Of a stretch of DNA of 64,000 bases, positions 8,561 through 43,119 are shown one piece after another (the first letter of the stretch is position 1; the number at the start of each line of letters is the position of its first letter). This stretch comes from Takakia lepidozioides (taxonomy: Eukaryota; Plantae; Bryophyta): positions 37,944,001 to 38,008,000 of the forward strand of contig CM060734.1 of assembly GCA_030704615.1 (NCBI GenBank), in the 5' to 3' direction. Under the pieces are notes generated by a model, which saw only the letters and a list, made by a program, of their open reading frames with translations, ran no database searches and was not told where the DNA came from. The position numbers and the translations under genes were made by a program.

Positions 8561-8770
8561 GTTTTTTTGAGACCCAAAGGAGCTCCCTTGACATAGATGT
8601 TCGTTCCACCAGGGGATGAGGTATATTCTGCACACCCAGAACTCTAAGAAATTCTGTCTATGCAATTGACACCTTGCATGAGCAAAGGCAAACTCTATTC
8701 ACAATGTGACAAAAAACAGGTACTCACTGTTTCTGTATGCATCCGCAGTGAGGTGGGTTAGAAGTAGGAA

Positions 8771-11700
8771 ATGGCACCAGCCTTGAGAAGAAGCTATATT
8801 CAAAGGTGGAGGGAGCCTCGACGTAGCTATACTGGCTTCAAGATTGGACTCTTTTGTGGTGCCATTGTGTGCACTTGCTTTTTGTTGACAATGTATGAGC
8901 TGTCAAGGTATGGTTATCTGACAATGGAAGATGGAAGAGAGATGCAAAGGGCGAGTTTGCCCCGCCTACAAACTGCAGGGCATCAGTCAGCCCTTTTACA
9001 ATCACACAATCCAACTGGCTCTAGCTCTCTACGAAAGACGGTTGTCAAGAGAGATGGGGCTGTAAGGAGGCCAGTGGACACTAGCTCACCAATTAAGCAA
9101 GGTGTACAGGGTAAGAAACAGAGGAAGGAAGTTTCCAGCAGAGAACAAGTTGCTGAAGAGATCGCCAAGACAAACAGCTTGGCAGGGGGGAAGGAGGTCA
9201 GGACAGAGTTTCTGGAAGGTAACAGCAAAAAAAATGATGTGGTCATGGACTTTCAGGACAGTTCATTTTATGGTGCAATTGAGTGGGCAAATAGAACGGT
9301 TGAGAAATTTAGCGAGGACATGGTCTCAAACGAAAGTGACAGAAAGCAAGCTTCAGGCAAAGACAAAAGTGGAGAGAGCGTCCAATTAGCTAAGGAAGAA
9401 ACGAAAAGGGAAGAAACTAGTGAGCAAGAAAAGTCAGAGGTTGTGGCAGACGTAAAGGAGGATGAGCACAACACTCCTTGGGAGACTCGAATGGGGAGCC
9501 TAGCAAAGAAAAAACCCCACAACATAGAGCAGCCTCTTGACTATGATGGACAAAAAAGTAGCAGAATTCCGGACGACGGATTCAATGGAGGTCATAGAAA
9601 CAGATCTAGGTCTGCAGGTTATTATGGTGAAGCTGGGCTGGCAAGCAATGTCTCTGTTGTATCATTGGACAATGTGGTACATAGACTGCAAGCGGGTTCC
9701 ACTGATTTAGAAATTGCTGGGGGCTTCCTAAGCAAGTTGACAGCTTGGATTTCTAAAGAGCAAAATGCAATATTTGGTTCTATGAAGGAGGCCGTGGTAG
9801 GCAGCTTGGCCAATAGTTCAACCACTAATTACATGGGTGGGGCTGATTCCAGCTCGGAGGAGACAGAAGAGATTGAAGCCACTGGTAAGGCTTCTGCTGT
9901 CTGCTCTATATGGTTGGTAAGAGGAGTAGGCATGTAGTCGTTCATTCATATGATTAGTTTGGACATGGTGACATTAGAGGCCTGAATTTGCATTTGCCAA
10001 ATGATTACACAGCAAGCAATATAATTATCAATGAGTTCAAATCCTTGATCAAAGCAATGTGGTGATCCACCCAGATCTCTTGAAATGCCAATAGATGAAC
10101 TGCAGTTCATGCTGAACCCTTGATAGCACGACCAGTCTGGGCCGAGTCCAAATTCCGATGTCATTATGCATTTGACCTGTGTATCACTTTGAGATCTCAT
10201 TGAAGCTGATTCACACCTAATACCTTCCTGCTGGACCTGGAGCGGTGCTACTTGTTCTTGTTTATGTCTGGCACTACACCTTGTTAGCTTTTGTTGTCCA
10301 GTACCTCCATTGTCAATGCATAGAGAGGACACAGCAGACTCCAGCCAAAAGAGAATCAGAGTGAGGGAAACCTTCTGAATTTCAAATTATTTAAAGTAGT
10401 TCTTGCTGCACGGCCCTTTCTCCCTGTGAATTCTTACATGTCAAATCCATTGACAAATTGTCTTATGGTTGAAAGCCCAGGATGATCCAGCTGAACTGGA
10501 GGAGGGGGATGAAGACCATGATCTGGTAGCTGACATGACGAAGGAAGAGAGCGAATCTTCAGAAACAGAGAAGGGGCCCCACCCCGCCTTCATAGCAAGC
10601 AACAACGCCATGCAGGAGAAAGAAAGTGCTGCCATAGTTGATGGAAGACAACCAGAGACAAATAATTCGAGGCAATCTACGGATGTCTTTCTGAAAGATA
10701 CCAGTCAATGGGAAATCACAAGTGGTAGCAGCCATAGTGAGTTCCTTCCTAGCAATGGTCATATGCTAGAAAGGGGAAGCAGTGCCTTGCTCAAGGAGCA
10801 GGAGACGGTTCAGGATGGGCATGCTGCAGACGTTCAATTTCTTAACCAGAGTAGAGCACCAGAATCGGTCTTGGAGTTCAGTATCCCCAGAACTATCCTT
10901 GACAGGTGGAAACCTCCGAAGGAGTGTGCGAAGGTGGAGGAAATGGGGTCTGCAGCTGTTGGGAACACAAGGTCCTCTAGCCTCCGTGTACGGAGCATGA
11001 TTCAGTTGTTCATAGCTGACCATGGGGCAGAGCGCGTAGCTGCACTGCCGGGAGCAGAATTTTGTAAACGGGGGTTTGTTCTAGGGCAGGGCCAGGAAGA
11101 TGGGTTTGGAAATAATATGTACAAGGTGCTCACAGCAGCAGGGCTGGCTGTCATGCTCAATCGCTCCCTCATTATTGGTAAGTACCCATATCAACTTGTA
11201 CATCAATCAAAACTTGCATGTCAAATGTCTAGGGAGAAAATCCTGGGATATGTAGCTCATGCTAAGTCTTAGTCCAGGCGCACATGGATATCATTAGATA
11301 AAGAATATCAGTTGGTTTATCTTTAAAGAAGACGCCAATAGGTCTCCTGCTGGACCTTGAAGTGTCAAATCTCCTTAAGTATCTAGCTGTGCACAAATGT
11401 CTCATATTGTGCAAGCCATTCATATGGCTGTACTGTGCAATTGTGATTGTAGGGGAGCGTGGCGCAACCAATCCAGCATATGTTGGTGGATCAAAGAAGT
11501 TCCTACCGGCCTTTGGTGACTATCTAGTGTTCTCTAACCAGTCGTTTACTATGCAAGAGGTTAAGCACCTATGGGCACGACATGGCTGCGCTGGAAAATA
11601 CAAGCGTCCCCTAGTCATGCATGTTGATGATATTGAGTTGGGACCTGGACGATCAAAGTGTCTGTGTGATGATTGGACCGCCTGGCCATACCCTATCATC

Positions 11701-13093
11701 TGGTTCAAGGGCACAACTGACACGGTGGCCCTGCAGTTTTTGTTGAAGAACACAAACCCCACTATGCGCACTGCAGCTGCAAAGTTGTTAGGGAATCCTG
11801 CAGTTCCCAGCTCTCGTCCGAACAGTTTTGGAGAACTTTTCCGTGCATTTGTTGCTCCCCACCCAGACATCCAGGAAGCTGTCCAATGGGCATTGAAACG
11901 AGGCCCTGACCCTGACATCTCGCTCCATCTTCGTATGCGCCACAGCCGCACCAAGCCAGCACCCGCAGCTGCATCATCTTGCATCCGCCGCCTCCAAAGG
12001 TCATTTCGGGGGCAACTACCTGTGGGGTATGAGTCTGCTGATGTTCTCTCATTAGTGAACTCTCCTCAATGTCTATACAAATCATCATGAAACTCCTCAC
12101 CTCTTCCACGCTACCTTGTTTATAGAGCAAGCTATCTAACTAGAAAAATCCATGAACCTGTTGAAGCTTGGTTTGTACACTTCACTGTTTATAAATTTCA
12201 ACCGTGGGACTTTGATCATTCTATGTAGGAAGGTTGATTAGAATTAAATGTTTGTTCTGTCTGGGATTGAAGGTAAATTCTCTTGGGAGGTGTCCCATTA
12301 TTTACCCACTTGCACATGTAGTTGGTGATATTCCACACTCTGGATAGCTGATTGAAAACGATCTTGCAGGAGGAGGCCCCGAGTGGTGGTAGTATCTGAC
12401 ACTCCAGCAGTCTACCATGACATTGAGCATTACCTTGGGCGTTCTGTGGAAATACTCCAGTTTGACTACATGGCATACTTAAAAGCTTTCAAAAATCTGA
12501 GTGAGGTGATGAGTTTAAATCATGGTCAGCCGCCACGCAACAGAATGAAGGACTGGGGCGAGATGCCTAGGTGGGTTGCGCTGGTGGACTTTTTCCTTGC
12601 GGTGCGTGCCCGTGTGGCAGTCGTGTCTGGGGCATACAAAAGAGTGAGCACCACGTATGCCCAGCTCATTGCATCCCTGGCGGCAGCATACACACTCGAA
12701 GAGGGTGTGATGTCCCCCAGTTGTGTATTCTATAGCAGTTTTCAGCCCTCACTAGTCGCCCAGGGTTTGATGAAACAATCAGGCTGGGGTCATGCTTGGC
12801 GACCATTTGGCGGCAAATTGGGGTGTCGGAATCAAGCTCCCCAGTGTGCTAGAACACCCCTTCTTCCTTATGCCTGGTGGGATGGTCCATGGGCATCCCC
12901 TACCACTCGGGATGTCCGCAAAATGCAAAGTATTGGAATTCATGTTGATGAGACTGGACAGGTTTCAGAGCAAAGCTTGGACAAGTTTTGCCAAGTTAAA
13001 CAGAAAAGTCCACTTAAATTAGTTAAACTGACAGTGCCGACTTGCACCAAAGAGAAACCTTGTGAAATACGATCCCTGCACCGCCCGGTATAG
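8771..13093 (+). CDS. Type II membrane fucosyltransferase-like (GT-B fold) protein; predicted exons 8771-9884, 10476-11177, 11453-11999, 12370-13093
   Basis: N-terminal TM helix (IGLFCGAIVCTCFLLTMY) and long acidic low-complexity stem. Motifs GFGNNMYKVLTAAGLAVMLNRSLII, ISLHLRM, VVVVSDTP, ALVDFFLA, STTY. All three GT-AG introns are phase-compatible (1,1,2). Confidence 0.85.
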
Positions 13094-14064: not shown

Positions 14065-14779
14065 TAACAATACTCATGGGCAATAACATCCAACATTAAA
14101 GGAATGGGGAGGAAATAGATCTCTTATACTTATTTGAGACTGATGTGAAAGTTGAGTCAAATGTATGTTATGCAAAGTTAGGTGGTTGCGGTGGTGTAGA
14201 ACTCACATAATACATCTATGAGAAAAAATGTGACGCATGGATCTGAAAATGAGTCTTCGATTAAAGCCAGTCCACTCAACGAAAGATTATGAAACTCGCA
14301 GATATTGTGACATAGATTCAGGCATGTTGGAGTATTGCAGAAAATCAGATGGGATGATTGTTCTTAAGGTCATTGACTTCCTAGCTTCTTTCAATTGAGA
14401 GATTCCACCGATTCGGAACAAGACCCACCAACGAGGTCAATAAGGACGACAAAAAGGCTTATAGGACTTGAGAGAGAGAATCGTAATTAGTGAATTTTTC
14501 TCTTAGTTATTTGAGGGACATTAATGGACAAAATCGCCCTCATCCATGGATTACGTAAATTGCCCCTAGCAAATCTTGTAATCTTGGATTAAGCATTTGC
14601 TGAGTTTCCATACCGTAGGACAACCAAATGCCTTCCGTCACCATTTATTTACTCACTACTATGTCATAATCTCACTAATGCCTCTGAATGCGATCCGTGG
14701 ACTCATATATTACTTCACTCGCATCAATGATGCCTAAGTCGAAATAGCAAATAGAAGAATGAAGATCCAAAAGAGGAAG

Positions 14780-15030
14780 TTCCCATGCATGGATATTGTT
14801 CTTCAGTAAAGCCCCACAAAGTAAATCCCAATTGGCTTTTTCAAAGTCAAGCATAAGCAGGGCTAAAGGTTGACTAATGCTTGCCTTGCGCAAAGCTTCA
14901 TTCACAAAAGCAAATTGTCCACCTGGATCATACGATTCTTGAGATAAACCCGTTTACTCAGGCATGATGATTTTGGGAAGAAGAGATTGGAGTGGAGTGC
15001 CAAGGTCTTCGCAATAATCTTGTAAGACGC
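14780..15030 (-). pseudogene. L1-type LINE reverse transcriptase fragment
   Basis: LALLMLDFEKA..W motif, preceded by degraded sequence resembling YKIIAK..A..LQ.LLPKII. Confidence 0.6.
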
Positions 15031-15089
15031 CCAACACACTATATTTTTACTAAGAGTCTGACCTCACTCTTTCTCATTCAAAATCACCC

Positions 15090-15190
15090 TTGAACCAACT
15101 AATCCACCTTATCAAAGTTCGTTTCACATATTGGTATTACTGGCAACGAAGCAGCCGACCTCCTAGCCCAACAAGGGGCCGCCCGGCCCC
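15090..15190 (+). pseudogene. RNase H C-terminal fragment (non-LTR retrotransposon type)
   Basis: With one frameshift it reads LIKVR.HIGITGNEAADLLAQQGA, the KxxxHxGxxGNExADxLA motif. Confidence 0.7.
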
Positions 15191-15338
15191 CAGTAGATCC
15201 CACGTCGGATCTCATTCACATTGCACACACCCACCCATTCTGGCTAATACACCCCATACCAGAGCCCCATGAGCCTCGACCAATCCGCAACCTCCTAACC
15301 GTACTTACTCGGGAGGCTAACAAACAAGCCTCGGCTTC

Positions 15339-16185
15339 TGTTAGTCACACCAAAATACACATCCAGAAATGGACGCAATCTGCAGTACTACATCATAAAT
15401 TATCAAACCACTTCTGGCACACCAAAGTCGTAACTGATGCACAAATACGACAAATTTTGAAATTCCGATACGCTTAATACATGGGCAACCAACGCAAACA
15501 CATTTTCTGGCCACGCCTATTCTCCCTCTTTCTACTCAGAGATGCACTCTCCGCTTCATTTCCCCCCAGTGATGCCAGCAGTCCTCCCAGAAGTAGTCCC
15601 CCTAGACCTCCCCGCTATTGTTTTTTCTACCTACAAGCTGTTCTAACCGCTTTCCTAACTAACCGTCATCCCTGTAGTACATGTTCCTTTTTCAGATGTC
15701 GTTTCCCCACCGTCGTTCCCTGCCAATGATAACTGTTCCCCAACTGTGTCGAGCTGTGACTGGCTGTATCAGGCTGTGCCGGGCTGTGACTGGCTGTGTC
15801 GGGCTGTGTAGGGCTGTGCGAAGCTGTGGTGGCTGTATCGGGTTGTGACTGGCTGTGTTGGGCTGTGTCGACTGTGCGAAGCTGTGACGGCTGTGTCTGA
15901 CTGTGTCGGCTGTGTCGGACTGTGACGGGCTGTGTTGGCTGTGCGAAGCTGTGACGGGCTATGTTGGTTGTGACGGGCTGTGTTGGCTGTGACTGGCTGT
16001 GTTGGACTGTGACGGGCTATGATGGACTGTGACGGGCTGTGATGGACTGTATTGGGCTGTGTATCTCCCCCCCTAAAGCCTGTTGCTGTCACCCCTAAGG
16101 CTCCTGTTGGTCTCAGTCTATGTAAAAATTAAGGGTACCCCACAGATCCCGTAAAAGCGTCTCAGTCCCAAGCAGCCCTCTAACA
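15339..16185. repeat. LTR copy 1 (TGTTAG...CTAACA termini) with internal GGCTGTG-type minisatellite
   Basis: Inverted 6-bp termini. 15521-16185 is a direct repeat of 24709-25335. Flanks gcttc/gtttg do not form a clean TSD. Confidence 0.75.
15743..16062. repeat. 9-10 bp minisatellite (consensus about GGCTGTGAC/GGGCTGTGTT); second array at 24931-25212
   Basis: Directly visible tandem units. The two arrays differ in unit number and order. Confidence 0.95.
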
Positions 16186-16257
16186 GTTTGTGTTTATGTG
16201 GTGTAGTGATGCATATACAAACCAAGTCTGTAGAGGTTGAACAATTTTGAACCAGGC

Positions 16258-18022
16258 ATGGAGGAAGATGTATTTCAAACTCCTCCAAACAGTCCTATTA
16301 ACCTGTTGGCTGAGGATGTTGAGGCTGGTCTGATAAGAGAGAGTCCAACTAGGACTATATTCTTGGATCCAAACTCCATTTGTAGGGCCATTGATTCAGA
16401 AACAAACACTCTTGCGGTGAACAATTTCATTTGGAGCTGGCTGTTGAGGCCCGACGAAACCGGGCTCCGCTACCTTCGCTGGGTGCAAAAGAGGCAAAAG
16501 CGCTTGCGAACTCCAGGAAAGCGGCAGAGCTTGCTCAGGCAGGAATTCAGGAGAAATTGAATGAGAAGAATAAAGGCCAAAGGAAAAAGACAAGGAAACA
16601 GGTGAGTACAGTAACACCCAAAAAACAGAAAACCATTGGGGCATCGGAGGAGGCGCAGGAGGGGACCCAAGGGAGTGACTCGGACGACGACTTTGTTCAA
16701 GGTCCTGCGACTGCTGTTGCTGCTACCAAGTCACCGGTCGTCCGGGTTCCCAAGTCAGTTCGGAGTGGGACTGGCTCTGCCAAGAAGTTGGCATTTGAGG
16801 ACGAACCTACACGGCGGTATTCGGCGGTGACGTTTACGCACAGGCCAAAGCTAGAACCTCCAACCATCATCCAATGCGTCAATGAGAGCTTCCTTGACGC
16901 TCTCGCTGCCAGGGCGAAGAAGGTGGCACACAACAAGTCTCTGGCGGAGCAGAAGGGGAAAGCCAAGAAGAGGGCTGCCGGTACAGAGCCTAAAGACACC
17001 CCTGATTTTGAAGCCATGATGGAATTCTTCACGGTTGTGAGCACGGATTGCAAGAGCACTCGGGGGGGGGGGGGGGGGTGGTGTTGTTGAGGTGGAGAGA
17101 GCTTGCGATATGATTCTCCTTGACATTCCAGATGGGGAGCTGCTGGAGGGCCTGGATGGTGTGCCCACCAGGAACAGGTTTACTGAGGACTACTGGAAAG
17201 CCGGGTTTGGGCTGGCGGGGATGCTCCTGGATGACGGTGGATGTGTGGTTGTCCTTGCCACAAGAGGGAAGACCACAGAGAATGCGGTGGCAAGATGGAC
17301 ACCGAAAAGTGTCACCCCGGTCCTCCTCAGAAAATGGTTCTGCATCAATACACAGGGGTTGTGAACAGAGGGCCAAAGTGTAAGTTATCAATCTATTGCA
17401 TTCACCTCATATTGTGGTGTATCTAAACTAGATCCTGGAGTTGATCCCTCTTTTGTTGGATGTGCAGACATTGGTGTTTGAGGCATATTGCTTTGTGAAG
17501 AGAGGGTCTTCTTTCAAATTCCGCAACGACGGTCGTCTTGTTGATGCCGCTGTGGACCCTGTTACCTACGATGTCCTCTACAACTATGTGCCCCACTCCA
17601 GTATGCCGAAGGACACAAAGACAGGCAAACCGTGGCAGTACAGTCGGACCCGGAGCCCTGCTTTCATCCAAACCCTCATGGAGACGTGCTCGGATGTCCA
17701 AGGGCGGATTCTGGACCTCACATGCGGCACGGGTAAGCCTTCACGTGCTCAGTTTGTCCCCTGGCCCGATTGCAATTGCATGCCGCAAGCTATTAACCGC
17801 CCGTTTTATTCCTCAGGTGCTTCAATGTGGGCAGGGACGTTGTCCGACAGGCATGTGTTCGCCTTCGAGCCAGATATTGCCCTCCACAACTCGGAACTTG
17901 CAGCGGCTGAACGTCTGCCAAAAGAGGAAGAGGCATCCTCGGAGGATGAGGAAAAATCCGAGAAGGAGCAGGGGGAGGAACAAGTTGGGATCGAGGCCGA
18001 GGAGCCCCCGGTGTACGAATGA
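16258..18022 (+). pseudogene. Beta-class amino (N4-cytosine/N6-adenine) DNA methyltransferase-like gene with two spliceosomal introns (17380-17467, 17733-17816); this copy is disrupted
   Basis: Motif-IV-like DMILLDIPDG, then LLDDGGCVVV. After splicing it reads RSPAFIQTLMETCSDVQGRILDLTCGTG/ASMWAGTLSDRHVFAFEPD, matching the N6_N4_Mtase C-terminal pattern (KP..L...I...S..G..VLDPF.GSG.T..A....R...G.E.D). Frameshifts near 16430 and at poly-G 17063-17078; in-frame TGA at 17362. Confidence 0.7.
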
Positions 18023-18148
18023 GTGGTTGCATTGTAAGTTGCCTCCAGATTTCGTGAGGCACCTCCCTTCGCTCTCTTATTTCATTGAAAACCCTTTCTG
18101 TTTCTGCTGGTATTGACATTCTTGAAGTGGATTTGTTCTTACTGTAAG

Positions 18149-18598
18149 ATGCCAAGTACGGTAGGAGGGACGTCTACACCGGAGTTCATGGGCAGGATGA
18201 ACGTGCCTTTTTTTGCCAGGGGGGATTTCATGCCTAGTCCAGAAAGGGACTACATCCTTCCTACTTATGCTGCCCGGCTTGCTTCGGTGTCCATTAGGAG
18301 GTGTTCCGAACCTAGTCGTGTACAACAGATTTTAGACGAGGCAAGCCTCAAGAAAATGAAGATGAGGGAGGAGGCAGCAGCTATTAGAGCCCGTCGGGCT
18401 CGTAGATTTGTCTTGGATTCTGCTGAGGAAAGTGGGGGAGAAGAGGCAGAAGATTCCCAGGAGGTGAGGTGGATAGTCCCCCAAGGAGAGGACGGCATTT
18501 TTGAGAGGCATACTGCAACCGATGCATCACAGAGCTCGGAGGATGGGGGGGATGAGGGGGATGAGGAAAAAGGAGGCCAAGTTCCTCGGAAGGTGTAG
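18149..18598 (+). CDS. Small hypothetical ORF between the methyltransferase and gag (helical, acidic C-terminus)
   Basis: Open frame of 149 aa, closely spaced with its neighbours; contains RRARRFVLDSAEESG. Confidence 0.45.
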   Translation: MPSTVGGTSTPEFMGRMNVPFFARGDFMPSPERDYILPTYAARLASVSIRRCSEPSRVQQILDEASLKKMKMREEAAAIRARRARRFVLDSAEESGGEEAEDSQEVRWIVPQGEDGIFERHTATDASQSSEDGGDEGDEEKGGQVPRKV

Positions 18599-18693
18599 GA
18601 GAGTAGTTCCCATTCCTGCTATGACAGTTAGGACACACTTGTATAGACGTGGCTTGCCACAAAATTTGCAATAAAATGTTGCATTTCATTGCT

Positions 18694-21600
18694 ATGACGA
18701 GTCCACATGACCCTATTTCCGTGCCTCCTAACCCTATTTCCGTGGACAGACAATGGCCCGCTCATGCTTTTTTTTTTCCCGCTCATGCTCATGCCGCTCA
18801 TGAAATAGCAGCCCCCTCTGGGGGGACAGGGAATGTGGGAAGTAGTGCAACTGGAGCTGGGAATACTATGAATATAGTGGGGCCAGTAGCAGGGAGTGCT
18901 CAGGGGCCAGCACCTGGTGGGAGTTCCACCACTACAACAGGTCCTCAAGGACTAGCACCCGTAGGGGGACCAGCACCTATCAGTGGGCAGAGTGTAGGGC
19001 CGCAGATGGCGGTACAACCATCCCGGGCAAAACCACCTTTTCCAATATATATAGGAAAATGGGATCCTGATGTACACATCAGCCAATTTGACCACATGTG
19101 TATTGTGAACAATGAAAATGGCGATGATGCCAAGATGAGACTGTTTCCATGTTCACTTATTAAGAAAGCAAGTGAATGGTATGCAAGATTCCCTGATAAT
19201 CATTTCCTGACCTGGAATGGCCTTAGTACGGCATTCCGAAATAGGTTCAGGACAAGCAAAACTGAGGACGAAGTGTATGGAAGTTTACAACAGTTGAGGC
19301 AAAAGAAGCATAAAACTGTTGAAGAGTACATGGAAAAAATGGAATTAATGATGAAAAAGCTGGCCGCTGTACCAGCACCAGGGTTACAGAAGACTTGGTT
19401 TGTGAGTGGACTAAGACCAGAGTTGCAAAAGAAAGTGGATAGGCTACCACATAATACAGTGGAGGAGGCATTTGAAACAGCTAACAGAATTGAGCAATTG
19501 GGAATGCTCAAGAGAGAGAAAAGGGAGGATGAGGACTCTGGGGTCAGACGAGGAAGAAGAGCAAGAGCTCAAGAGGAAGAGTGAGAAGAAGGAAAAGTTG
19601 AAGAGGGATAACTATGAGAAAAGATTGGAAGAAATCTCGAAGAAGTATGCCACAGAGGCTGCAACACATTGGAGGAAGGGTGTTTGGTGTGCAAAATGCC
19701 AGAATGAAGGCCATACCACAGCTGAATGCCACATGAAAGAGAAACACTGTACTATCTGTAAAATGGATAACCATTCCACTAAGAATTGTTATTACAACAG
19801 AAGGACAGCTGCAAGAGAACCTAGGCAAGTAAGGGTGCATCAAGTGCAGCCCCAGCCAAGAAAAAATAGTGATCAGGACCACTATGGTAGGCCTAGTGGA
19901 TATAACAATGGTATGGAAGGGAGAGGTAATCCAAGAGGGAATTACCAAGGCAATTCCACGGGCAACTATCAGGGTAATCCAAGGGGAATTATCAGTCAGG
20001 GAATCAGGATTAGAGAAATAATCCCAAAGCAGATCAAGGGCGAGGACCCAATGGTGAAGAACTGTGTTACTACTGTAATCAGGCTGGACATCGCAAGGCA
20101 ACCTGTCCATTCTGGATCAGACACCAGAATGAAATGAGAGCTCCTGTGAATGAGGGCCCAATGGTGGCAGCTCACATGGTTAGGCCATGTTTTGTACCGG
20201 AAGTGAGTACAATGATAGTGACCAGAAGCAAAGCTAAACTAATACCTCCAGTGGATGAGGAAGAGGATGGTAATGAGGATGGCAGTGATGTGCCTGAAGA
20301 TGATGAGGCTTGGAGAGATGAGAAGGAACTGCACAAGGAAGTGGCTGATACCATAAGGGAAATGCTAAAGAATACTGATATCCTTATGGCAGATTCTTCT
20401 GATTCAGATGGAGAAGATGAAGAGAGTGAAGATGAAGTGAAGAAAGAAACTGCACAAGTGCAGAGTAATGAAGGGATTCTGGCTGAAATAATATGTCAGA
20501 CCAAAGCTGAGATTACCATTGGACAGCTATTGGCTGTGGCACCTCATTGTAGGCACAGGCTATATCAAGCAATTAATCAGATTGCTCATGTGACAAAGAA
20601 CACAGACCTGAACAGCAAGGTGACAAGCTATAATGTGAAGCCAGAAGGGCGAGAAACAGTCATGGACTTTGATGATTCTATGCCAGTAATCCAATTGAGA
20701 ATTGGAAGCACAGACTTGACTGATGTACTGATAGATGGAGGCTCAGGAGTGAATATCATGACAGACCAATTAAGGCAAAAGCTTGGTCTGAGTAGTATGA
20801 AACCAGCCCCATTCACAGTAACAATGGCAGATCAGAGGAGTGTACAGCCTTTAGGCTTGATAAGAGGAGTTAAGATACAGATTCAAAAGATGATCTTTAA
20901 GATCACAGTAACTGTGTTGAAAATGGATGATGTTATGGAAGCTTACTCCTTATTGCTGGGTCGACCATGGCTGAAACAGACCAGGGTATTCCACAACTGG
21001 AATTCCCAATTACTGACTGTGCATGATGGGAAGCACAAGAAACAGGTCACCACTAAGAAATCTAGTAGGCTACTTGCTACCGGAAGACCTCGTGGAGTCA
21101 GAGAGTATGACCGGAGGGGAGGACTTGATGAGGAGCAAGAGGCTACCATGTTTGCTGCACACCCAGAGTGGGAGCAGGTTGCAGAAATGCAACTGGAAGG
21201 CCTAAGTTGTTTAAAAGGTATATGTTGTGGTGTAGTAACAGCAACACCAATTGAGGATGAAACAAGCAGTTACCCACCACATTTCTATGAGGAAAGAGAG
21301 GGAGAAATGGAAATCCTAGAAGAACCAGCCACTGTAAATTTACAGGATGAAGTAGTGACTGGTTGGACAATCACAGCTAATGAGCAAGTGAGAGAAGTGA
21401 ATGTGGGAACTGAGGAGGAACCGAGAATGGTGAAAGTGGGGGCTGACTTGGAGCCATAATTCTTTGAGGAAGCCAAGAGTTTGTTCATCAAATACAAAGA
21501 TATATTTGGACCTGAAAGGGATACCACCTGAGATCTGTCAGCATAAGATTGAATTGGAACCAGGGTCAGTACCAATCAAACAGGCAAGGTACAGAATGAA

Positions 21601-24210
21601 TCCCAACTATGCATAGAAGGTTGGGGAGGAGATCAAGTAGATGGCTGAGGTTAAGTTCATATACCCGTTAGAGTATACAACATGGTTGTCACCCATTGTG
21701 ATAGTTCCCAAAAAGAATGGTAAACTGAGAGTGTGTGTGAACTATAAGAAGTTGAATGCTTGTACAAAGAAAGATCCCTTCCCTTTGCCATTCACAGAAG
21801 CGGTGCTGGACACTGTGGCAGGCCATGAAATGTACTCATTCATGGATGGCTTCAGTGGGTATAACCAAGTGCAAGTGGCAGAAGAAGACCAGGGAAAGAC
21901 AACTTTCATCACAGACTCGGGTGCTTATGCATACAAAGTCATGCCTTTTGAACTTTGTAATGCACCAGCAACTTTTCAGAGAGTGATAAGTGAATCTTTC
22001 CATGAGTATCTGGATGATTTTATGCAGGTGTTCTTAGATTACTTCAGTGTGTACAGTTCTAAGAATGAGCACTTGCATAAATTGGAGTTATGTTTGGCCA
22101 GATGCAGGATGAGAGGTCTGGGCCTGAATCCAGAGAAGTGTACTTTCTGTGTGAACTCAGGGGTACTTTTGGGACACATTGTGTGTAAGAGGGGACTGCT
22201 TGTGGATCCTAGAAAGACAGAGGCTATTAAAGCCTCTCCGCCACCAGGAAATGTTAAGAGTCTAAGGAGATTCCTTGGACAAACTAGTTATTACAGAAGA
22301 TTTGTCAGACGGTATGCACAGATAGCAGCACCATTGAGCGGGCTTCTGAAGAAAGATGCAGTGTTTGCATGGACAGCTGACTATCAATAGGCTTTTGAGG
22401 AACTTACATTGTCAATAACAACTACACCTGTGCTTATTAACCCTCACTGGCATGTAGTATTTCATGTTCACTGTGATGCCTCAGGAGAAGCATTGGGAGC
22501 AGTGTTAGCCCAAAATGTTAAAGGAAACATAGATTCACCTGTGTACTATGCTAGCAGATTGATGAACAGTGCTAAAAGGAACTATAGCACAACTGAAAGA
22601 GAAGCATTGGCAAAGATTTATGCAGTCAAGAAATTCAGGCATTACCTATTGGGAAGAAGTTCATGTTTTATGTGGATCATCAGGCTCTGGTTTATCTGGT
22701 GAACAAGCCTTTGATAAGTGGCAGGATAGTTAGACGGTTAATAATCTTGCACGAGTTTCAGTTTGAAGTTGTTTACAAGCCTGGCCGTTTGCATCTTGTG
22801 GCAGATCACTTGTCACGCCTACCAACAGGAGAGGCCGCCACGGGAGTAGACGACCAACTACCTGATGTGAGTTTATTTGCAGTGGAGGTGCAGGGAAGTG
22901 CAGATGATTGGTTAGATTGGCAGTGACCAATCAGATACTACCTTACTCATGGTCAGTGCCCACCTAGTTATGGGAAGGAGCAGAGGAAGAGAATAGTTAT
23001 CATGGCTTTACCTTACACTATGATAGGGGGCAGAATGTATAAGCTAGGACCTGATGGAGTTCTTAAACGATGCTTGTACCACCATGAAGTAGATAAAGTT
23101 TTGGAGGAAGTTCATAAAGGAGTGGTTGGAGGTCATTTTGGAGACGAGACTACCAGTAGAAAGATACTACTTGCAGGTTACTGGTGGCCTACTTTGTTCA
23201 AGGATGTACACAAATATTGCAAGAGTTGTGATGAGTGTCAGAGGCTAGGACCATTGTAGAGATCTGGGAAGATGGCTTTGCATCCTATGATGCCTACTGA
23301 ACCATTTCAGAAATGGGGACTAGACTTTGTTGGACCAATTAATCCACCAGCCAGAAATACACAGAAGAAGTATATAATCACAGCCACTGATTATACTACA
23401 AAGTGGGTGGAAGCTAAAGCTCTGAGGGACAACACAGCTAAGTCTACAGCAAGGTTCCTGTATGAGAACATACTTACATGATTTGGTTGTCCCCTGGAAT
23501 TTATCAGTGACCAGGGAAGTCACTTCATTAATGAGACCATAGAACGATTGACAAAAGAGTTCATGATTGTGCATAGGAAGAGTATATCCTATTACCCACA
23601 GGGTAATGGGCAGGCAGAGGCTAGCAACAAAATACTATGTATTATCTTGGCTAAGATAGTTAATGCAAACAAAACCGATTGGGATACAAAGCTGCTGACA
23701 GCTTTGTGGTCATACAGGACTTCATATAAAGTCACCACTAAGTATACACCATTCCAATTAGTTTATGGTATGGAAGCTTTACTTCCAGTGGAGTTCTTGT
23801 TACCTACCATGAGAACTGAATGGGGAAGGAGAGGGGAATTGGAAGATTCACTTAAGGTCAGGAAACATGAATTATACCATGTGGAAGAAGTACGTGCTGA
23901 TGCAACAGACAACATGACCAGAATTCAGATGAAGAGGAAGGATTAATTTGATGAAGGTAAATTAAAGACTTTTAAGATGGGAGATTTGGTACTGTGGTTG
24001 TAGAAGAAGGGAAAGACTAAAGCTTCTAAGCTTAAATCATCATGGAAAGGACCTTATATCATACAAAAGATGTAAGATAACAACACCGCCATGATACAAT
24101 CTATTAACAAAGAGATGTTGGGAAGAGTCAATGCCAATAAGTTGAAGGGATACAGTGGTATCCATGACAAACCATTGCGGCACGATTTGCATGTTGAAAC
24201 ACAAAAATAG
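18694..24210 (+). mobile_element. Ty3/Gypsy gag-pol (non-chromovirus-like), decayed: Gag with three CCHC knuckles, protease, RT, RNase H, integrase
   Basis: Retrotrans_gag-like KMRLFPCSL..KASEWY. Knuckles CAKCQNEGH, CTICKMDNH, CYYCNQAGH. Protease LIDGGS. RT WLSPIVIVPKKNGKLRVC, MDGFSGYNQ, NAPATFQR. RNase H CDAS, NYSTTERE. Integrase [25 protein letters not shown]. Many stops and frameshifts. Confidence 0.95.
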
Positions 24211-24684
24211 TCACGGGCTACACCGGGGATACCAACGGAGTATGGAGCACTTGTCATTAAGCCGAGTGTGTATGGCCAGGGCGGAAGGTATGTCGAGCGG
24301 CTTTTACTCACCCATCCCTTCGCTATCCGAGGTGGGAACTCCAAGATAGAAGAGTTGGAAATCTCTAAGCACTCAGCCCGCTCAGAACAATCAGTCATGA
24401 CCTACAGCTAGTGTATCATGGGGGTGTTTCCTATTTGTATTCCTTCCCGTATTCATGTTAGCTAGTTACCTTACTGTTGGTATTTAAGTATCAGATTGCT
24501 TCAGCAATCTATCGGATTCCATCAACTCATCCATTCATTCCACAGCTTCACTCAGATTTCTCTACACAGTGTGAGTATGAAGTATGTATCAGATTAATAT
24601 CTATCAAGTATCAGGCTGAAGCCATGGAGTCTCTAATCTGCTCTACATTACAACTCTACTGCTTGCATTCATCAAGCATCAACA
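24192..24684. repeat. Possible additional LTR-like segment (TGTTGA...TCAACA)
   Basis: Inverted 6-bp termini and a TATTTAA box at 24481. No TSD, no PPT and no second copy seen. Confidence 0.3.
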
Positions 24685-25335
24685 GATCGTTCTCCTCCTA
24701 CTCCGTGCTCTCCCTCTTTCTACTCAGAGATGGGCTCTCCGCTTCATTTCCCCCCAGTGATGTCAGAAGTCCTCCAAGAAGTAGTGATCCCTAGACGTCC
24801 CCGCTCTTCGCTTTTTCTACCTTCAAGCTGTTCTAACCGCTTTCCTAACTAACCGTCATCCCTGTAGTACACGTTCCTTTTTCAGATGTCGTTCCCCCAC
24901 CGTCGTTCCCTGCCAATGATAACTATTCCCCAGCTGTGCCGAGCTGTGACTGGCTGTATCAGGCTGTGGTGGGCTGTGAATGGCTGTGTAGGGCTGTGTC
25001 TGACTGTGTCGGCTGTGACGGGCTGTGTTGGCTGTGCGAAGCTGTGATGGGCTGTGTTGGACTGTGATGGCTGTGACGGCTGTGTCGGCTGTGCGAAGCT
25101 GTGACGGGCTGTGTTGGCTGTGACTGGCTGTGTTGGACTGTGACGGGCTGTGATGGACTGTGACGGGCTGTGACGGCTGTGTCAGGCTGTAATGGACTGT
25201 GTTGGGCTGTGTATCTCCCCCCCTAAAGCCTGTTGCTGTCACCCCTAAGGCTCCTGTTGGTCTCAGTCTGTGTAAAAATTAAGGGTACCCCACAGATCCC
25301 GTAAAAGCGTCGTAGTCCCAAACAGCCCTCTAACA
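24456..25335 (-). repeat. LTR copy 2, probable 3' LTR of the minus-strand DNMT element (left boundary uncertain; homology to copy 1 starts at 24709)
   Basis: Begins TGTTAGAGGGCTG on the - strand directly after a polypurine tract. A TGTTAG at 24456 could be the other terminus. Confidence 0.7.
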
Positions 25336-25353
25336 TTTACCCCTTCCCCTCTC
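25336..25353 (-). promoter_or_regulatory. Polypurine tract (PPT)
   Basis: The - strand reads GAGAGGGGAAGGGGTAAA and abuts the TG of the LTR. Confidence 0.75.
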
Positions 25354-25535
25354 AAAAAATCGTGTCCTCACGGTTTACTATTTGGGATTTGGAAACCTTT
25401 GTGAGCGAGCACCATTCTGACGGTAAGAGTCTCGTGAAGGACTCTGCGTGCGAGCCCGAGGTCTGTCACTGGTTGACGGATTGAGCACTACCTGGAAATG
25501 TCAGTCCTTCCTTTGGCTGATATCGAGGTAATCTT

Positions 25536-28500
25536 TCAGGCATAGGAGACCCCCGTCGCTTCTTCTCTGCCATCTGCATAGTCCTCTGCCATGTCAAAAG
25601 AGTTCGCTGAAGAATCAGTAGTATCAGAATCCTCATTGCCTCTCAGGTGTTTTAACGGCCAAACTTTTTGTGGAATCCTCTGGGGCATACAATGTGGTCC
25701 CACCATGTTTGGAAGTTTAAATTGTAAAACTTGTTGTAAGCGCTGAATTGCAAAATTGGTGAAGACCATGAACTCATTGTATGTCCACGTGAGTGGTGTA
25801 CCAATGACTTGTGAATTGTGCAAGTTTTTCCATGCCTCATGGCCCTTAAAGAAAATATCGTCAGGCCCGAATTTCTGTGTTGACAAATTGTTCCAGGCCG
25901 CATGAAACCATGAACGAAGTTGGGAGTCCTTTTGCATCATCACCTTTGCATTATAGAGGTACATATGAGATGGCACTGAAGGTAAGACCCAATGATCCCC
26001 ACTGGAATAACTCAGAAAGCGCGATTGCATCTTCTGCTGCTCAATGTGATAACGTGCAAGAGAACAAGCAGCATAGTATAACCCGCAGCCCATGACAATA
26101 CTTGCTACCTCATTGGTCTTGGTATAAATGTACCCATGTACAACTTGGAAGGCAATTAATTCCTTCAACATGGTACTTGCCTCATGCCAGTACCTCGCAA
26201 AGTGATGATCCTCAATGGGTCGATTGTTCGGAAGAACCTTAGTCTTAGTTGCCACTGGCAGCCAAATGCGCATGATCTGGTAGTAATGTGCCAACGACTG
26301 TGGAGGACTAAATTCCCTCCGAGCCAAATCCAACACAATGGGAATTTGGTTGAAGGGCATAATCATAGCCCGACTGTACTCCCGTGTAGCATGAGTTTTA
26401 GGTGGGTTAAAATCAGCATTCCCCCATACCTCAGGCTGTGGTGGCTGTGGTGTGGCTGTAGTAACAATAGAGTCAGCTACTGTCACAGTGCCTTGTTGTG
26501 GTCTTGGTGACACTGGCTCTTGTATCAGTGGCATCTCCTGCACCCCCTTCGAAGAAGACTGAAAAGTCAAAATTCTGGCATGTAAATAAGAAGCCACTAG
26601 CTGCTCCTCAGGTACAAAGACTCTCTTGTTGATATTTGAAGTGAGGTCCTCCACCTGAGTCTGCAGGCCGTCTACATCCTCCTGTAACTCCGCTATCCTA
26701 CTATAGAAATTGTCTATAGTAGTTGTGGCAATGTTCTGTACCTGCAGTCTGAGCTCATTCATCTCGCCTTGGGTGAGCTTCCGTGGTGCTTTGCCTTCCA
26801 CCGCCCCTTGTGCTAACCAGACCTGCATAAGGTGGTTATCCACCAAGTTGCTTGTGACACCCCTGAGAGTCTGCTCCTTTGTGAGCCTGTACACATCTAT
26901 CTGCTGCTGTAAAGCCTCCATGCGCTTCGCATGAGGTTCAACCAAACTCGCATATGCAGCAGCCAGATTATTGGCTTCCTTCCCAGCCTTGTTAGCCACA
27001 GAGAGTTCATTTTTATTGGACATGAGCGTTTGTTGCAATTCCAGGATGTACCTCTCTTGGTCAGCTTCAACCTGCCTGTATTGCTTGAAAGTATTCTCGT
27101 TGCAACAGATTGTATTCTTCATATCAATAATGAGTTTCGTCTACTCGAGATTATCAGCCTGTGCCTTCATACATCTTTCCGCTTGGTTGTTAACTTCTAA
27201 TGTAGTTTGCTCAAGCGTAGTTGTTAGTGTAGCACATTGTATGACCATCCTATCATGCACTATCTGCAACTCCGTATGTAGTGCATTCACTTCTTGCAAC
27301 TTGCTTTCATGCTTCACCTGCATTTGGTATAGATGTTGCTTATGTGCTTCGTGCAACTGGTCCTGCGCGAGGCCTGCTTCAATCAATTGTTCCTTGGCCA
27401 TTTGCAAAGCAGCTTTTGTACTCTCTAAGTCTTGCTGTATCTTGAGAGTGACCTCCTCATCGACCTTGTTTGCACACTCAGTGGCAAGTTGAGCCTCAAA
27501 CTCCTTCCTGAGTTCCTCCCTCAAAGCTGCCAATTGGGTAGTTGGAACATGGGATTTGACATAAGTGCCCAACAAATTAAGTGTCATGCTTATGGAACTC
27601 ATAAGCATGGCCTGTTGAGGGTCATCATGGTGAGCTTGCTGCTGTTCTCCCTGATCCTCAACAGTGTGATGCCTCACGAACCATTCAGGCCATTGCCCCA
27701 CCAGATTTTCTTCCTGAACCACCTCATCCGCTACAGGTGCTGCAGTGTCTTGACATTCTACCTGTGGTACCTCCGTCAGAGGTGTGGGTATTACAACAAC
27801 AGCAGGGTTTCCCCTGGACAACCGCTGCACCTCCAAAATCACTCTTTCCCTGACCAAACCAGAATTTTCATAGAGAAGGTCCCCCTTCTCAATTTCTGCC
27901 ACCACCTGTTCTGTAGTGGGGATATCTAACCATTCTTTCTCCAAATCAATTATTTGTGGTGGAACTGCATGGACAACTTGTGGTAACTCTGTGACAAGCC
28001 GATCATCTGGCTGTGATGGCTATGATACTGAAGTAACTTCCTCTTCCCTCTCTGAAGGCCCTGCTTCCAATAATAGCAGCTCTCTGTGCTGCTGTGCCCC
28101 TTCCTGCACAAGAGCTTGGGAAACATTATCATGCGGTTTTCGTGAAGCCAGTGGATCCGTCACTACAATCTTTCCCCGCCTCTGTCTTTTAGACTGGGGT
28201 TGCCCTGCCAGTCCACCCTCACTGTGCGAGGAGCCTGGCTCTTCCATTGCAGTGGTTTCGGCCTCAAACAGTCCCATCTCTTTCCTTTTTCTCGCATCAA
28301 GTATGCACGAGTCTAGAATAATTTGTGCAATGATTGGCCTAGACACTATGATAGGAGACTTTGCGGCAGTGCCTTGTAATCTCTTCATCTCCTCTACCAG
28401 TCCGTTGTACATTATGTCCGCCCAAACGACCTCTTCTCCTCTCAGGGCTTTGAGTATTTCCTCTGTGAAGGATCTGCTCAAATACTGTTGGTTCTGTTTC

Positions 28501-28720
28501 ATGGCAAAAAGAACGTTCAATACCTGGCCTACCTCCCTTAGCCCTGGGTACACGGCCTTGGTACAAGCATAACCCTGAGTTTTAAAGAAACTCCCTTCTT
28601 GGAATAAGTCCCCTATTTGCAGTCTTGCCCTGTGCTCCTCCACATGCACCCGACCTGATGGCAATTCAAACAATTGCTGTAGGTATAGGGGAGTAACTTC
28701 TAATTCAACTCCCTTCACCA
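25536..28720 (-). pseudogene. Large retrotransposon 3' accessory ORF (about 1060 codons): plant-transposon-protein-like N-terminus, long coiled coil, globular C-terminus
   Basis: ORFs 28020-32342, 27141-27944 and 25536-27122 share one frame, separated only by single TAG codons at 28020 and 27141. The VKGVELEVTPLYLQQLFELPSG pattern resembles Athila/Tat-type accessory proteins. Confidence 0.65.
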
Positions 28721-31700
28721 TTGTTGCTCCTGCCTGTACCGTCTCGGTAGGCAGAGAGACCGTCAAGGGAAGTGCACTCCGCACTCTACGTTGCTCAGCC
28801 ATAGCCAAGCTGACAATCCAGGTCAAGCAATTGAGATCCATTGCTTGCCCCAACACCTGACGACGTGATGCCTCAGAAAGAGAAGGCACCGCCGTGGTCC
28901 CAGTGGAAAACCCCATAGCCCGCTCTCGCTCGTCGGCATTAGGCTCCACTAACTGCTGCAACTGAGCATCCCACAGGAGGCCAGGTCCACCATCCCGAAA
29001 AGCATGGGATCCTGGGAAGCTGAGCAGTGTAGGTAATGCTGCTCGTGGTTGACCCACCCTGTTGACCACTGCCAAAGGCAAACGGTCATCGTGTCTCACA
29101 CGTTGAGACTGCCTTCCTGTGTCCAAAATGCCATCCACGGTGAGGTGTGCTGGCCGCTGCACCCCATCAAATGCACGCTTGAGCAGTGCGGGTGGCATCA
29201 AGTTAGTCCACCATAGTCGTGGACGATGAGCCCGTGACCCCACTGCAGCTGCATCCAGCAACACTGCTGACCCAAGCCACGACCGGACTTGATGCACACT
29301 GGCCATCACCCTGGCCCGAGAATCACCCATCAGTGGTACATTCTCCAAGATGTATGCTGGAGATACAGCTTGATGAAGCTGCAAGCAGCGCAAAATCCGC
29401 ACCATCTCCCAAAACAGACCCGTCCTCGAGTCTCGCAATCCATTGCCATGCCCGGCTGATGAATGCCCTTGGCAGGGCCAACCTGCCACTATCAGATCAA
29501 TGGAGCCAACCTGCTCCAAATCTTGCGTCCCCAACAAGGAAATGTCTGCTGGCAAGGCTTGTTGGTATCCACGAACTGCAGACACAGGCAACAAGTCAGG
29601 GTACTGCTGTACCAACTGAGCCACATGGCGCAGTGAGACGCGTCGTGCAGTCTCATCCCTCTCCACATACAGGTAACGCCTTACCCGCACACCTGCCTGT
29701 AGCACAGCAGCCAATCCGGTGCTGATCCCGCCAAACAAGTCCAGAAGACAAATGCCTTCATCCGGCCGCTGCCACACAAGAGGTGTGGTGTCCAATGGCG
29801 ACAACTGAGGTGGCCCTGGTGCAATCACCGCACTCTCCTCCTCTCCTGACGGTACAAAAGCTTCTTCCCAAGCTTGTTGCACCCGTCCATCAGCAGCTTG
29901 CTGCAAATCCTTGCTCGTACCCCACAACGGAGTGTGAGCAACCATGGCAGGCAACTCCGCCGTACCATGCATGTCATCCTGCTCTGCTGGAGGTGGCACA
30001 TCCTCTGCATGGGCATTGCCTTCCAGCAACTCTCCAGGCCAACTAACGGCAGCTGTGAAGGCGGCTAGTGTTGGCATCTTGCCCCGCTGGGCAGCTGCAA
30101 TACCCCCAATGAATGTCACAGGGAGCTGTGCACGGCGACCATCCCCTGACTGCCATCCAGGCCTGTAGGATGCTGACTCCTCCCAGAAATCCAGGGTGAA
30201 GCCCATGGGGTATAACACTGCCCCACCAACGAGGACATCGTAAGAGACCGCGTCTGTCACAATGGCCTTGGCTCGCATCACTGAGCCATCTACAGGATGA
30301 TCCGGCTGCAGTCTAATAGCCAACTGATGCCGTGTCATGCCGCGAGCCTGCTCTGATCCTCCCAGAGATGTCTGTATCTGGAAAGGACAAGGCTCCATAT
30401 CCGCCTCCATGAGGCCCAAACCTGCAATAGCAGCTCTGCCCAACATCAGTGGCTGAGCTCCTGAGTCCAACAAGACCCGCAGTGGCCGGTACTTCTTGCC
30501 TGCCGGTCCACTCAAAGTGAAAATGCCTCCCTGGTTGTCTAACAAGACAACTCCAGGTGTCACCATGGCGCGCTCAATGGCTGGCCTAGCTGGTAGCTCC
30601 GTCAACCTGGCAGCTGCAACTTGCCATGGCGCAGCCGTGGCAGTCTTGACCCTCAAATCCGAGGATCCCTCTGCCACTACACCTTCCACTAACTCCGTAG
30701 AAGATGAAGTGACCTCCCCACTCTCACAGAGTGTTGCTGCTAGTCTGAACACTGCAGCTGGTCTCACCCCCGGCGTCGCAATCATTGTTGCCGAGAACAG
30801 TGGGGCCTGACACACAGAGGTGGCTGCCCCCAATAACACACCGGCCGCACTAGCCTTGGCAGCAGGAGTCAATGCTGCACGTGTAGCTCTCCCCAATGGC
30901 ATAGTAACCTCCGCCTCGGTAACAGTCGGGCGAGAACTAGGTGCTTTGGATGGCGTCGACACAGTCTCCGCCAATGTGAATGACTGAGGAAGCCTTGCCT
31001 GACGGCTTGCCTCCCCACGCTGTGGATCCAATTCCACCTCTGCACCTCGTGGCTCAGGAACTCGTGCTGCTCCTCGAGTCACGGCTGCAACAGACTCCAC
31101 CTGCTCTAGTGGTAGTGCTGCTCCGCACATAAATCCCATGCCTCCCATATCTCCTCCCTCAGGAGCAGGAGGTGGACCATCCCGCCTGGGAGCCGGTACC
31201 GCCTGAGCTATAGCCATGGCAGCGAGCCTTTGCTCTAGCTGCTGAAGCCGGTTGGCCATGCCTTGATCAACGCCCTGACCTCCGCGTCCTTGGCCATGTT
31301 GAGCTTGCCCTTGGCCTGCACCTCGTGCCCGACCACCTCGTCCTCTCTGGGCTGGTCCACCTCGCCCCCGGCCACCATTGTTCCCTTGGAACTGGCCTGG
31401 GCGCAACTCAGGATGCAAGTCATAACACTGGGCATCTCCATGCCCATACTTGCCACAATGCCCACACTGCAACTGTGCAGGCTGTGCTTGTGCCGGCCTT
31501 CTGCCACTCTCTGGGCAATCTCTCTTGACATGGGGTCCTCCACATGTCCAACATATCACCCCTGGTTGCTGTTGGCCTGCAAAAGATGCCACGGGCCTCT
31601 GCACCTGAGGTCCCCTGTAAGCTCCATGGAACTTGGGCTGGGCAACCTTGCCCCCCTGACCACGCTGTTGGGCAGTCCCTTGTGCTTGTGGGCTGACAGC

Positions 31701-43000: not shown

Positions 43001-43119
43001 GCTCAAAGCTGAAGCAGCTTGGTCTTGAGAAGGAGCCGAGCATTCTGGTCAGTCTTGTGCCCAGAAGCAAGAATACTACCATTACCATTGAAACCATCCG
43101 GATTGAGCTTGCCCAATAA
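40027..43119 (+). CDS. PPO: Polyphenol oxidase (tyrosinase family) with secretory-type signal peptide; exons 40027-40409, 41299-41771, 42118-42329, 42448-43119
   Basis: CuA HCAYC..H..FHRWYVYFHE, FALPFW.WD. CuB HGSIHYW and DPLFFVHHTNVDRLW. DWL domain DWLNSEFVFYNEN. C-terminal EEVLAIEG and EYAG. Introns are phase-compatible. Confidence 0.93.

Follow-up and report, generated by a model that had tools for sequence, protein, structure and literature searches.

Genes for amino-methyltransferases of the PF01555 type have been described as passengers of several algal DNA transposons. Red-algal Plavaka (EnSpm) transposons carry PAG2, which combines PF01555 and SET domains, and such accessory genes move between transposon families according to the available text of the source (bioRxiv 10.1101/2025.02.11.637652). 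The Ectocarpus element Sola1-1_Ec32 carries a ParB plus N4/N6 methyltransferase gene of 1104 aa, whose product is proposed to bind and modify its own element; similar proteins are cited in the same text for green and red algal transposons (PMC12477816). As for host genes, Marchantia DN4MT1 has the motif TSPPY and makes 4mC (bioRxiv 10.1101/2021.02.12.428880), while loss of the Ser and Tyr of motif IV abolishes the activity of bdelloid N4CMT (PMC8885841). Within retroelements, KnitGypsy-Dnmt3 places a C5 methyltransferase inside the Pol of a Klebsormidium Gypsy element (PMC5890265), and the adenine methyltransferase domains of DIRS elements have been called likely inactive (PMC4738411). The available part of PMC12344493 holds nothing on the gene family treated here, and among the literature matches listed, we found no report of LTR elements or transposons of land plants with an amino-methyltransferase. 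The original prediction for the present locus, made from sequence, had called such enzymes rare in eukaryotes, a statement that misses the published PF01555-type accessory genes of algal DNA transposons (bioRxiv 10.1101/2025.02.11.637652; PMC12477816).

The window analysed here, a 64,000-nt stretch of the Takakia lepidozioides genome, contains a gene whose sequence recalls these enzymes. Four public runs (X5, X7, X8 and X10) were aligned to positions 15500–19600; X5 and X7 are repeat-rich, and X8 and X10 were taken as RNA, X5 and X7 as DNA, by guess, as no run's type is on record. Together with the open reading frames, the aligned contigs define the following features:

16186..16436, + strand: low-copy segment with ATG at 16258, joined to the gene family at 16425–16436 (depth 0.06 in X5, 1.09 in X7; X8 record 25 departs from the window sequence on either side; a different sequence precedes 16425 in X7 record 18 and X8 record 26)
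16425..17379, + strand: 5′-truncated coding exon, a Lys-rich low-complexity part followed by the N-half of a methyltransferase-like domain (ORFs; X7 record 19, X8 records 26 and 27)
17062..17078, + strand: G17 run at the frame break, of varying length among copies (gaps there in X5 record 11 and X7 record 19)
17122..17133, + strand: motif IV position, reading DIPD (hhalign sets DMILLDIPD on DMILTDPPY; DPPY in 97 of 100 phage enzymes)
17362..17364, + strand: in-frame TGA (from the sequence)
17380..17467, + strand: intron 1, 88 nt, GT..AG, phase 0, 39% GC (skipped by X8 record 27; the donor also fits the exon-2-skipping joint in X8 and X10)
17468..17732, + strand: exon with the motif VIII region, a variable region, motif X and the beginning of motif I (DLTCGT, 17714) (as query, it retrieved 12 homologs)
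17733..17816, + strand: intron 2, 84 nt, GT..AG, phase 1, in frame, stop-free and inside motif I (absent from X8 record 27; similarity stops there in 10 of 12 homologs)
17817..18033, + strand: exon with the end of motif I, motif II (FAFE, 17858–17869), an acidic tail and TGA at 18020–18022
18034..18148, + strand: likely intron 3, GTAAGT..AG, ~115 nt, alternative acceptor 18164 (X8 joints 18033–18148 and 18035–18177; consensus ends; the 18033–18148 joint deviates from a precise GT..AG cut by one base)
18149..18598, + strand: 149-codon ORF (ORF2), no Pfam match, either the last exon or a second gene, followed by AATAAA at 18670 (ORF list, Pfam scan)
18710..18816, no strand: short direct repeats (18710/18731, 18757/18778) ending in a C run, putative limit of the element that carries the gene (contigs with loose ends after 18816 in X5, X8 and X10, and before it in X5 and X7)

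The two GT-AG introns predicted at 17380–17467 (phase 0) and 17733–17816 (phase 1) were borne out by the sequence and by X8 record 27, a 770-nt contig with 96.9% identity to the window that skips both exactly; a check of both junctions in RNA-seq thus agrees with the predicted structure, X8 being RNA-like by guess. X7 record 19 (1311 nt, depth 81), from a run that is likely DNA, is unspliced across 16609–17932, and among the 15 of 21 joints shown, none skipping an intron was listed for X5 or X7, the DNA status of both being a guess. A more distant form present in X8 and X10, which stem from two studies, joins donor 1 to acceptor 2, i.e. skips exon 2. X5 alone contributed 192 contigs to 15500–19600 in four identity classes, and the family is therefore multicopy. 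The gene is real: it contains introns, is spliced in an RNA-like run and exists in many copies.

Its limits differ from those first assigned. Run depth amounted to 0.06 and 1.09 (X5 and X7) in the bin 16185–16321 vs. 30–131 over 16459–17828, and X8 record 26 extends the gene family upstream by at least 575 nt that are absent from the window. X5 and X7 hardly contain the segment around ATG 16258, and beyond 16425 the family contigs go on upstream with a different sequence; the gene therefore probably does not start in the first ORF piece, where the original prediction had placed it, and the window copy is 5′-truncated. Nor does the transcript end at 18022: the X8 joint 18033 to 18148 leads on into the 149-codon ORF. 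The anticipated poly-G frameshift (17 nt, at the frame break) and the TGA at 17362 are both present; with its stop and frameshifts, the window copy is broken and cannot make protein. Over 17966–18650, depth in X5 reached 445–707, or five to ten times the value for the methyltransferase exons, suggesting that a short derivative has been amplified in this sample.

Beta-class amino-methyltransferase ancestry of the gene is well supported by converging, individually weak lines of evidence. The motif order IV…X-I-II with typical spacing matches the PF01555 beta class, and the global alignment is colinear. As reference served 100 phage beta-class enzymes from 160 loci, chosen for a PP-type motif in a long ORF, and profiles were built from them. 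Removal of intron 2, which interrupts the SAM-binding motif between DLTCGT and G as predicted, restores the motif I–II spacing: the distance from the motif I Asp to the motif II acid is 23 residues spliced vs. 51 unspliced, and 23 in 93 of the 100 phage enzymes. The motif IV–I distance of 168 lies within the range of the closer phage group (166–184). On the joint phage profile the spliced window protein scored 6.9 bits, with 0 of 2000 shuffles as high; on two sub-profiles it scored 4.7 and −0.5 bits (1 and 38 of 2000 shuffles as high, respectively). Global hhalign (p 0.005) set DMILLDIPD on DMILTDPPY, LLDDGGCVV on IIKPNGAIV and DLTCGTG on DFTMGSG.

Direct searches with pieces of the window yielded little. 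None of the 17 pieces scanned matched Pfam, the curated PF01555 cut-off not being reached; 0 of 5 matched PHROGs; a PDB sequence search with a window piece returned 0 matches; PADLOC reported nothing but one weak REase match on the window pieces; and word-seeded protein searches (longer, near, and longer with alignment A1) found nothing. Two weak PDB matches of alignment A1 (unrelated), nine records from a phage tblastn of a window piece (chance matches) and a prokaryotic locus, L205 (a chance match in an rpsL–rpsG region), were discarded. Viral contigs yielded no match to the family, nor did they to the window's own RT, which served as control, so that this negative carries no weight.

More was gained from an HMMER scan with 17468–17905 over 1.84 billion representatives, which returned 14 matches, 12 of them relatives at 28–47% identity; P0011 and P0013, unrelated repeat proteins, were dropped. 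Ten of the 14 were looked up by cluster, and the relatives among them are unnamed or ‘hypothetical’. Similarity is lost right after DLTxGT, the position of intron 2 in the window, in 10 of the 12 homologs, two of which (P0005 and P0018) resume after an in-frame insert at that place; intron 2 thus seems to be old. P0008 ends before this point and P0010 runs through it unbroken. P0010, the best of the 14 retrieved proteins, matched PF01555 over positions 159–219 of 221 (E 7.6e-6) with 26.5 bits against a cut-off of 26.7, so that a HMMER check against PF01555, as put forward with the original prediction, came out negative for the window pieces and marginally short for their best homolog. Four beta-class structures were among the top five PDB matches of P0010: 5hek (M1.HpyAVI/DpnA type, E 0.002), CcrM 6pbd, TTHA0409 2zie and MboIIA 1g60. 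In the Atlas, 25 of 30 matches of the C-half carry N6_N4_Mtase (best 0.93), and the first match of the N-half (17107–17361) is a methyltransferase-domain cluster (score 0.92, UPF0020 in 63%), the matches for both halves sharing fewer than the 170 features typical of same-family matches. AlphaFold models reached pLDDT values of 40 and 44 (unusable), and Foldseek gave no match at E 0.001 on such models; no homolog of the motif IV exon was retrieved. Taken together, the P0010 matches to PF01555 and PDB, hhalign, the Atlas and the motif spacing support the predicted ancestry.

The active site is a different matter. Motif IV (DMILLDIPD, 17107–17133) departs from (D/S/N)PP(Y/F/W) and lacks the stacking aromatic residue, which confirms the earlier caveat that DIPD leaves activity unproven. 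Motif I reads DLTxGTG vs. DxFxGSG: its Asp and two Gly are retained, as is the Glu of motif II, and Thr takes the place of Phe in the window protein as well as in most homologs. Among the 40 of 397 differences shown in the run alignments, none between copies falls on DIPD or the stop sites. With DIPD vs. DPPY in 97 of 100 phage enzymes, membership among the active enzymes of the beta class is not supported, and catalysis by the putative methyltransferase is doubtful. A product with DIPD and DLTxGTG would more likely be a weak or non-catalytic binder than a normal 4mC/6mA writer.

On either side of the gene lie remains of LTR elements:

15521..16185, − strand: LTR copy 1, the part homologous to copy 2; minus-oriented family, no adjoining purine tract (self-BLAST with 24709–25335; X7 contigs go past 16185 with a pyrimidine tract like that beside copy 2)
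18817..23946, + strand: decayed Ty3/Gypsy gag-PR-RT-RH-IN with stops and frameshifts, normal upstream sequence missing (PF03732, PF13975, PF00078, PF17919, PF17921, PF00665; ORF breaks)
24709..25335, − strand: homologous part of LTR copy 2, an LTR that may begin near 24412 and is the 3′ LTR of an element on the minus strand (on that strand, a tract with 14 of 15 purines immediately precedes TG, 25337–25354)

The LTR copies match at 576 of 624 aligned sites and end in CTAACA. These ends, the purine tract beside copy 2 and the like tract in X7 past 16185 mark the family as minus-strand; its internal region lies to the right of 25335, and it does not bound the plus-strand gag-pol. The gene had been described as sitting between an LTR and Gypsy gag, and an LTR-like repeat is indeed found upstream and gag-PR-RT-RH-IN downstream on the same strand; this LTR, however, has minus-strand orientation and does not belong to gag-pol as its 5′ LTR. 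That the two copies form the 5′ and 3′ LTRs of a plus-strand Gypsy element was ruled out, as the purine tract lies outside the pair and on the minus strand. The plus strand before 24412 has only 6–9 purines in 15, no TGG-type PBS was seen after 16185, and no tRNA was found within the window. A purine-rich run followed by TG near 24290 (24281–24300) could mark where the 3′ LTR of the plus-strand Gypsy element really begins; the window contains no second copy of it. Of 13 sites at which the runs differ from the window, copies 1 and 2 share the window allele at 8, and the runs lack those 8; judged by these alleles, the copies are close kin and could bound one unit. Both copies, members of a rare subfamily on either side of this mosaic, contain a 10-nt GGCTGTG-type tandem array, and the part 15521–15636 had almost no cover in X5 and X7.

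Elsewhere in the window, a 1455-codon open frame on the minus strand (28023–32387) encodes gag, protease and a C5 cytosine methyltransferase (PF00145, E 1e-12) with intact-looking PC (29483) and ENV (29345) motifs; no RT follows, and the sequence past about residue 1200 is unrelated. The frame resembles KnitGypsy-Dnmt3 of Klebsormidium as described in the available text (PMC5890265), but stands in a genome with genes of land-plant type. Two minus-strand frames of 534 and 292 codons (25539–28019) without significant Pfam match lie just before the purine tract of the minus-strand LTR and are likely extra 3′ ORFs of that family. Host genes for DUF7810, polyphenol oxidase (DWL and KFDV domains) and SURNod19 were found at 8768–13093, 42439–43116 and 58283–58981, respectively, a gene content indicative of a land plant. 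LINE fragments comprise endonuclease and RT in 1–5024 and a LINE-like piece, recognized by eye, at 14675–15480, left of LTR copy 1. A CACTA transposase gene (48185–51105; PF02992, PF13960, PF13952) is located 30 kb from the methyltransferase-like gene.

How the gene relates to gag can be read from the junctions. Sequence in other copies changes at 16425 and at 18816, and the junctions seen in the window are not the prevailing arrangement. Ahead of 18816, the gag contigs of X5 and X7 have a common sequence that differs from the window, and the dominant 30-mer upstream of gag occurs nowhere in the window. In X7 record 23, 611 nt before gag fall outside the alignment to the window; in X10 record 8, ~2900 nt upstream of gag do not align to the gene; and contigs of X5, X8 and X10 leave the window at 18816 with differing continuations. 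Among the 32 of 405 pieces listed, none bridges 18816 from the gene to gag. Identity to the listed X5 and X7 contigs was 94.9–99.1% for the gene and ORF2 vs. 91.0–91.4% for gag (Fisher p ~3e-8 in each run), which points to different histories. Depth in X7 was 73–98 for the gene, 57–168 for ORF2 and 132–138 for gag; in X5, it was 445–707 for ORF2 vs. 33 for gag. Family contigs (X7 record 22, X5 record 15) run from ORF2 to 18777–18816, and the reading frame of gag stays open through 18816. In X8 and X10, the 30-mer that precedes gag resembles 18694–18700 plus 18802–18812 (a likeness equalled by 8 of 2000 shuffles and 15 of 1979 random windows, for one of four motifs and with scoring chosen afterwards), which hints that the window spacer may precede gag in a second subfamily. 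The 45 nt of 18772–18816 recur in contigs of X8 and X10, flanked there by different sequence on either side; a common cis motif, the element's other end or a diverged subfamily are possible explanations. A search of the window for parts of the gene's element revealed neither a transposase nor a left terminus, and no inverted-repeat partner or target-site duplication either; the window offers one candidate end, 18816. Helitrons end in the motif CTRR, and a Helitron end at 18816 was rejected for lack of it; a metagenome scan with a 17-mer of the candidate end returned 42 loci, none like the window.

On balance, we lean towards reading 16425–18816 as a broken, 5′-truncated copy of a spliced, multicopy, beta-class-derived gene, likely the accessory gene of a DNA-mobile element that came to lie beside the 5′ part of an older, decayed Gypsy element. 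Passage of a retroelement through RNA removes sense-strand introns, so that intron retention fits movement at the DNA level; introns kept in DNA copies, at a position common to distant relatives, would be consistent with an element that moves as DNA and thereby retains them. The protein that an intact element would most likely express, after splicing, combines a disordered N-region of basic character with a methyltransferase fold that would bind SAM. By analogy with PAG2 and Sola1, this product may bind SAM and the DNA or chromatin of its own element, and may help the element to escape or shape host silencing. What is observed are the introns, the RNA-like splicing of related copies, the many diverged copies, the motif order IV..X-I-II and the breaks in the window copy. 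Speaking against a DNA-mobile element are the missing transposase, left end and target-site duplication, the spacer-like 30-mer, X7 depths within one order, the LTR alleles shared at 8 of 13 sites, the gag frame open across 18816 and the weak direct sequence support for the window protein (6.9 bits, no Pfam match). No SET or ParB domain was detected by Pfam in the window pieces, and at least 575 nt of upstream family sequence are absent from the window.

The original prediction had a Ty3/Gypsy family carry the gene as cargo. This is not shown and more likely wrong, given the LTR orientation, the non-dominant junctions at 16425 and 18816, the unequal divergence and the introns in DNA copies. 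Recast as an Ogre-like extra gene upstream of gag, with deletions at 16425 and 18816 and foreign LTR insertions in the window copy, and with introns surviving through the packaging of unspliced genomic RNA, such cargo seems unlikely to us. It would account for a gene lying directly upstream of gag on gag's strand, for contigs running from ORF2 to 18777–18816 (X7 record 22, X5 record 15), for the similar depth of gene and gag in X7 and for the spacer-like 30-mer ahead of gag in X8 and X10, and Gypsy elements are known to carry epigenetic enzymes, at least in the texts available (Dnmt3 in Klebsormidium, PMC5890265; an m6A demethylase in orchids). It sits poorly with a divergence of 3–4% for the gene vs. 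9% for gag, an X5 depth of 445–707 for ORF2 vs. 33 for gag, 2.9 kb upstream of gag in X10 record 8 that do not align to the gene, three sense-strand introns retained in DNA copies and LTRs oriented to the minus strand.

Antisense carriage by another LTR family would likewise preserve introns, and passive amplification of a captured piece of a host gene (Pack-type or Helitron) that does nothing for the element would suit junctions that bound the piece on both sides, transcripts that skip exon 2 or stay unspliced, and a degenerate motif IV. Yet motif X–I features and the intron position are kept across many samples, suggesting long selection on a dedicated gene, and splice sites are kept even in the diverged subfamily; we rate these origins as rather unlikely. 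That the amino-methyltransferase resemblance is due to chance, or extends only to a generic SAM-binding half, is very unlikely. The window pieces matched nothing in Pfam, PHROG, PADLOC or PDB, the best homolog stopped at 26.5 vs. 26.7 bits, hhalign reached a p of only 0.005 and no usable fold was obtained, all of which chance would explain; it would hardly explain P0010 matching both PF01555 and four beta-class structures in its top five, N6_N4_Mtase sets in 25 of 30 Atlas matches, the exact motif I–II spacing or a IV–I distance of 168 within 166–184.

Should the DNA-mobile reading be right, transposon-borne amino-methyltransferase genes, described in red and brown algae and cited for green algae, would extend to a land plant through a spliced, multicopy family with at least 12 unnamed relatives below the Pfam cut-off and a reshaped active site. 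Members with activity would give plants a transposon-encoded means of making 4mC/6mA; members that are pseudo-enzymes would be candidate anti-silencing factors; and if the Gypsy linkage is true, this would be the first amino-methyltransferase cargo of an LTR element found in the literature searched. A bolder scenario, which we regard as a long shot, has mobile elements of land plants, possibly including this Gypsy family, carry a spliced amino-methyltransferase of bacterial type whose intact copies write 4mC/6mA on their own DNA via a non-standard active site, as a self-mark outside host 5mC; host enzymes, Marchantia DN4MT1 among them, might then have originated from such genes.

Compared with the beta-class PF01555 enzymes (5hek, 6pbd, 2zie, 1g60), the window protein agrees in motif order and spacing but differs in having DIPD instead of (D/S/N)PP(Y/F), DLTxGTG instead of DxFxGSG, introns, and Lys-rich and acidic extensions. 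The methyltransferases of KnitGypsy-Dnmt3 and DIRS lie within retroelements, as the suggested Gypsy setting would have it for the window gene; as far as described in the available texts, they are intron-less domains of a Pol polyprotein and belong to other classes (C5 or PCIF1-related), whereas the window gene is separate and spliced. Marchantia DN4MT1a/b and bdelloid N4CMT (PMC8885841) are, like it, eukaryotic beta-class amino-methyltransferases, and N4CMT has introns; going by their descriptions, these are host genes with an intact SPPY and shown 4mC activity, unlike the multicopy window gene without SPPY. The gene of Sola1-1_Ec32 is an amino-methyltransferase accessory gene of a DNA transposon, as the window gene would be; its described product comprises 1104 aa with a ParB-like domain, while the N-terminus of the window gene is missing from the window. 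PAG2 of Plavaka, finally, is a PF01555-type methyltransferase gene whose carrier is a multicopy transposon, a carrier that is presumed for the window gene; in the published description PAG2 has a SET domain and an InterPro-detectable PF01555, in contrast to the window gene, whose pieces in the window showed neither SET nor a Pfam match and which resides in a land-plant host.
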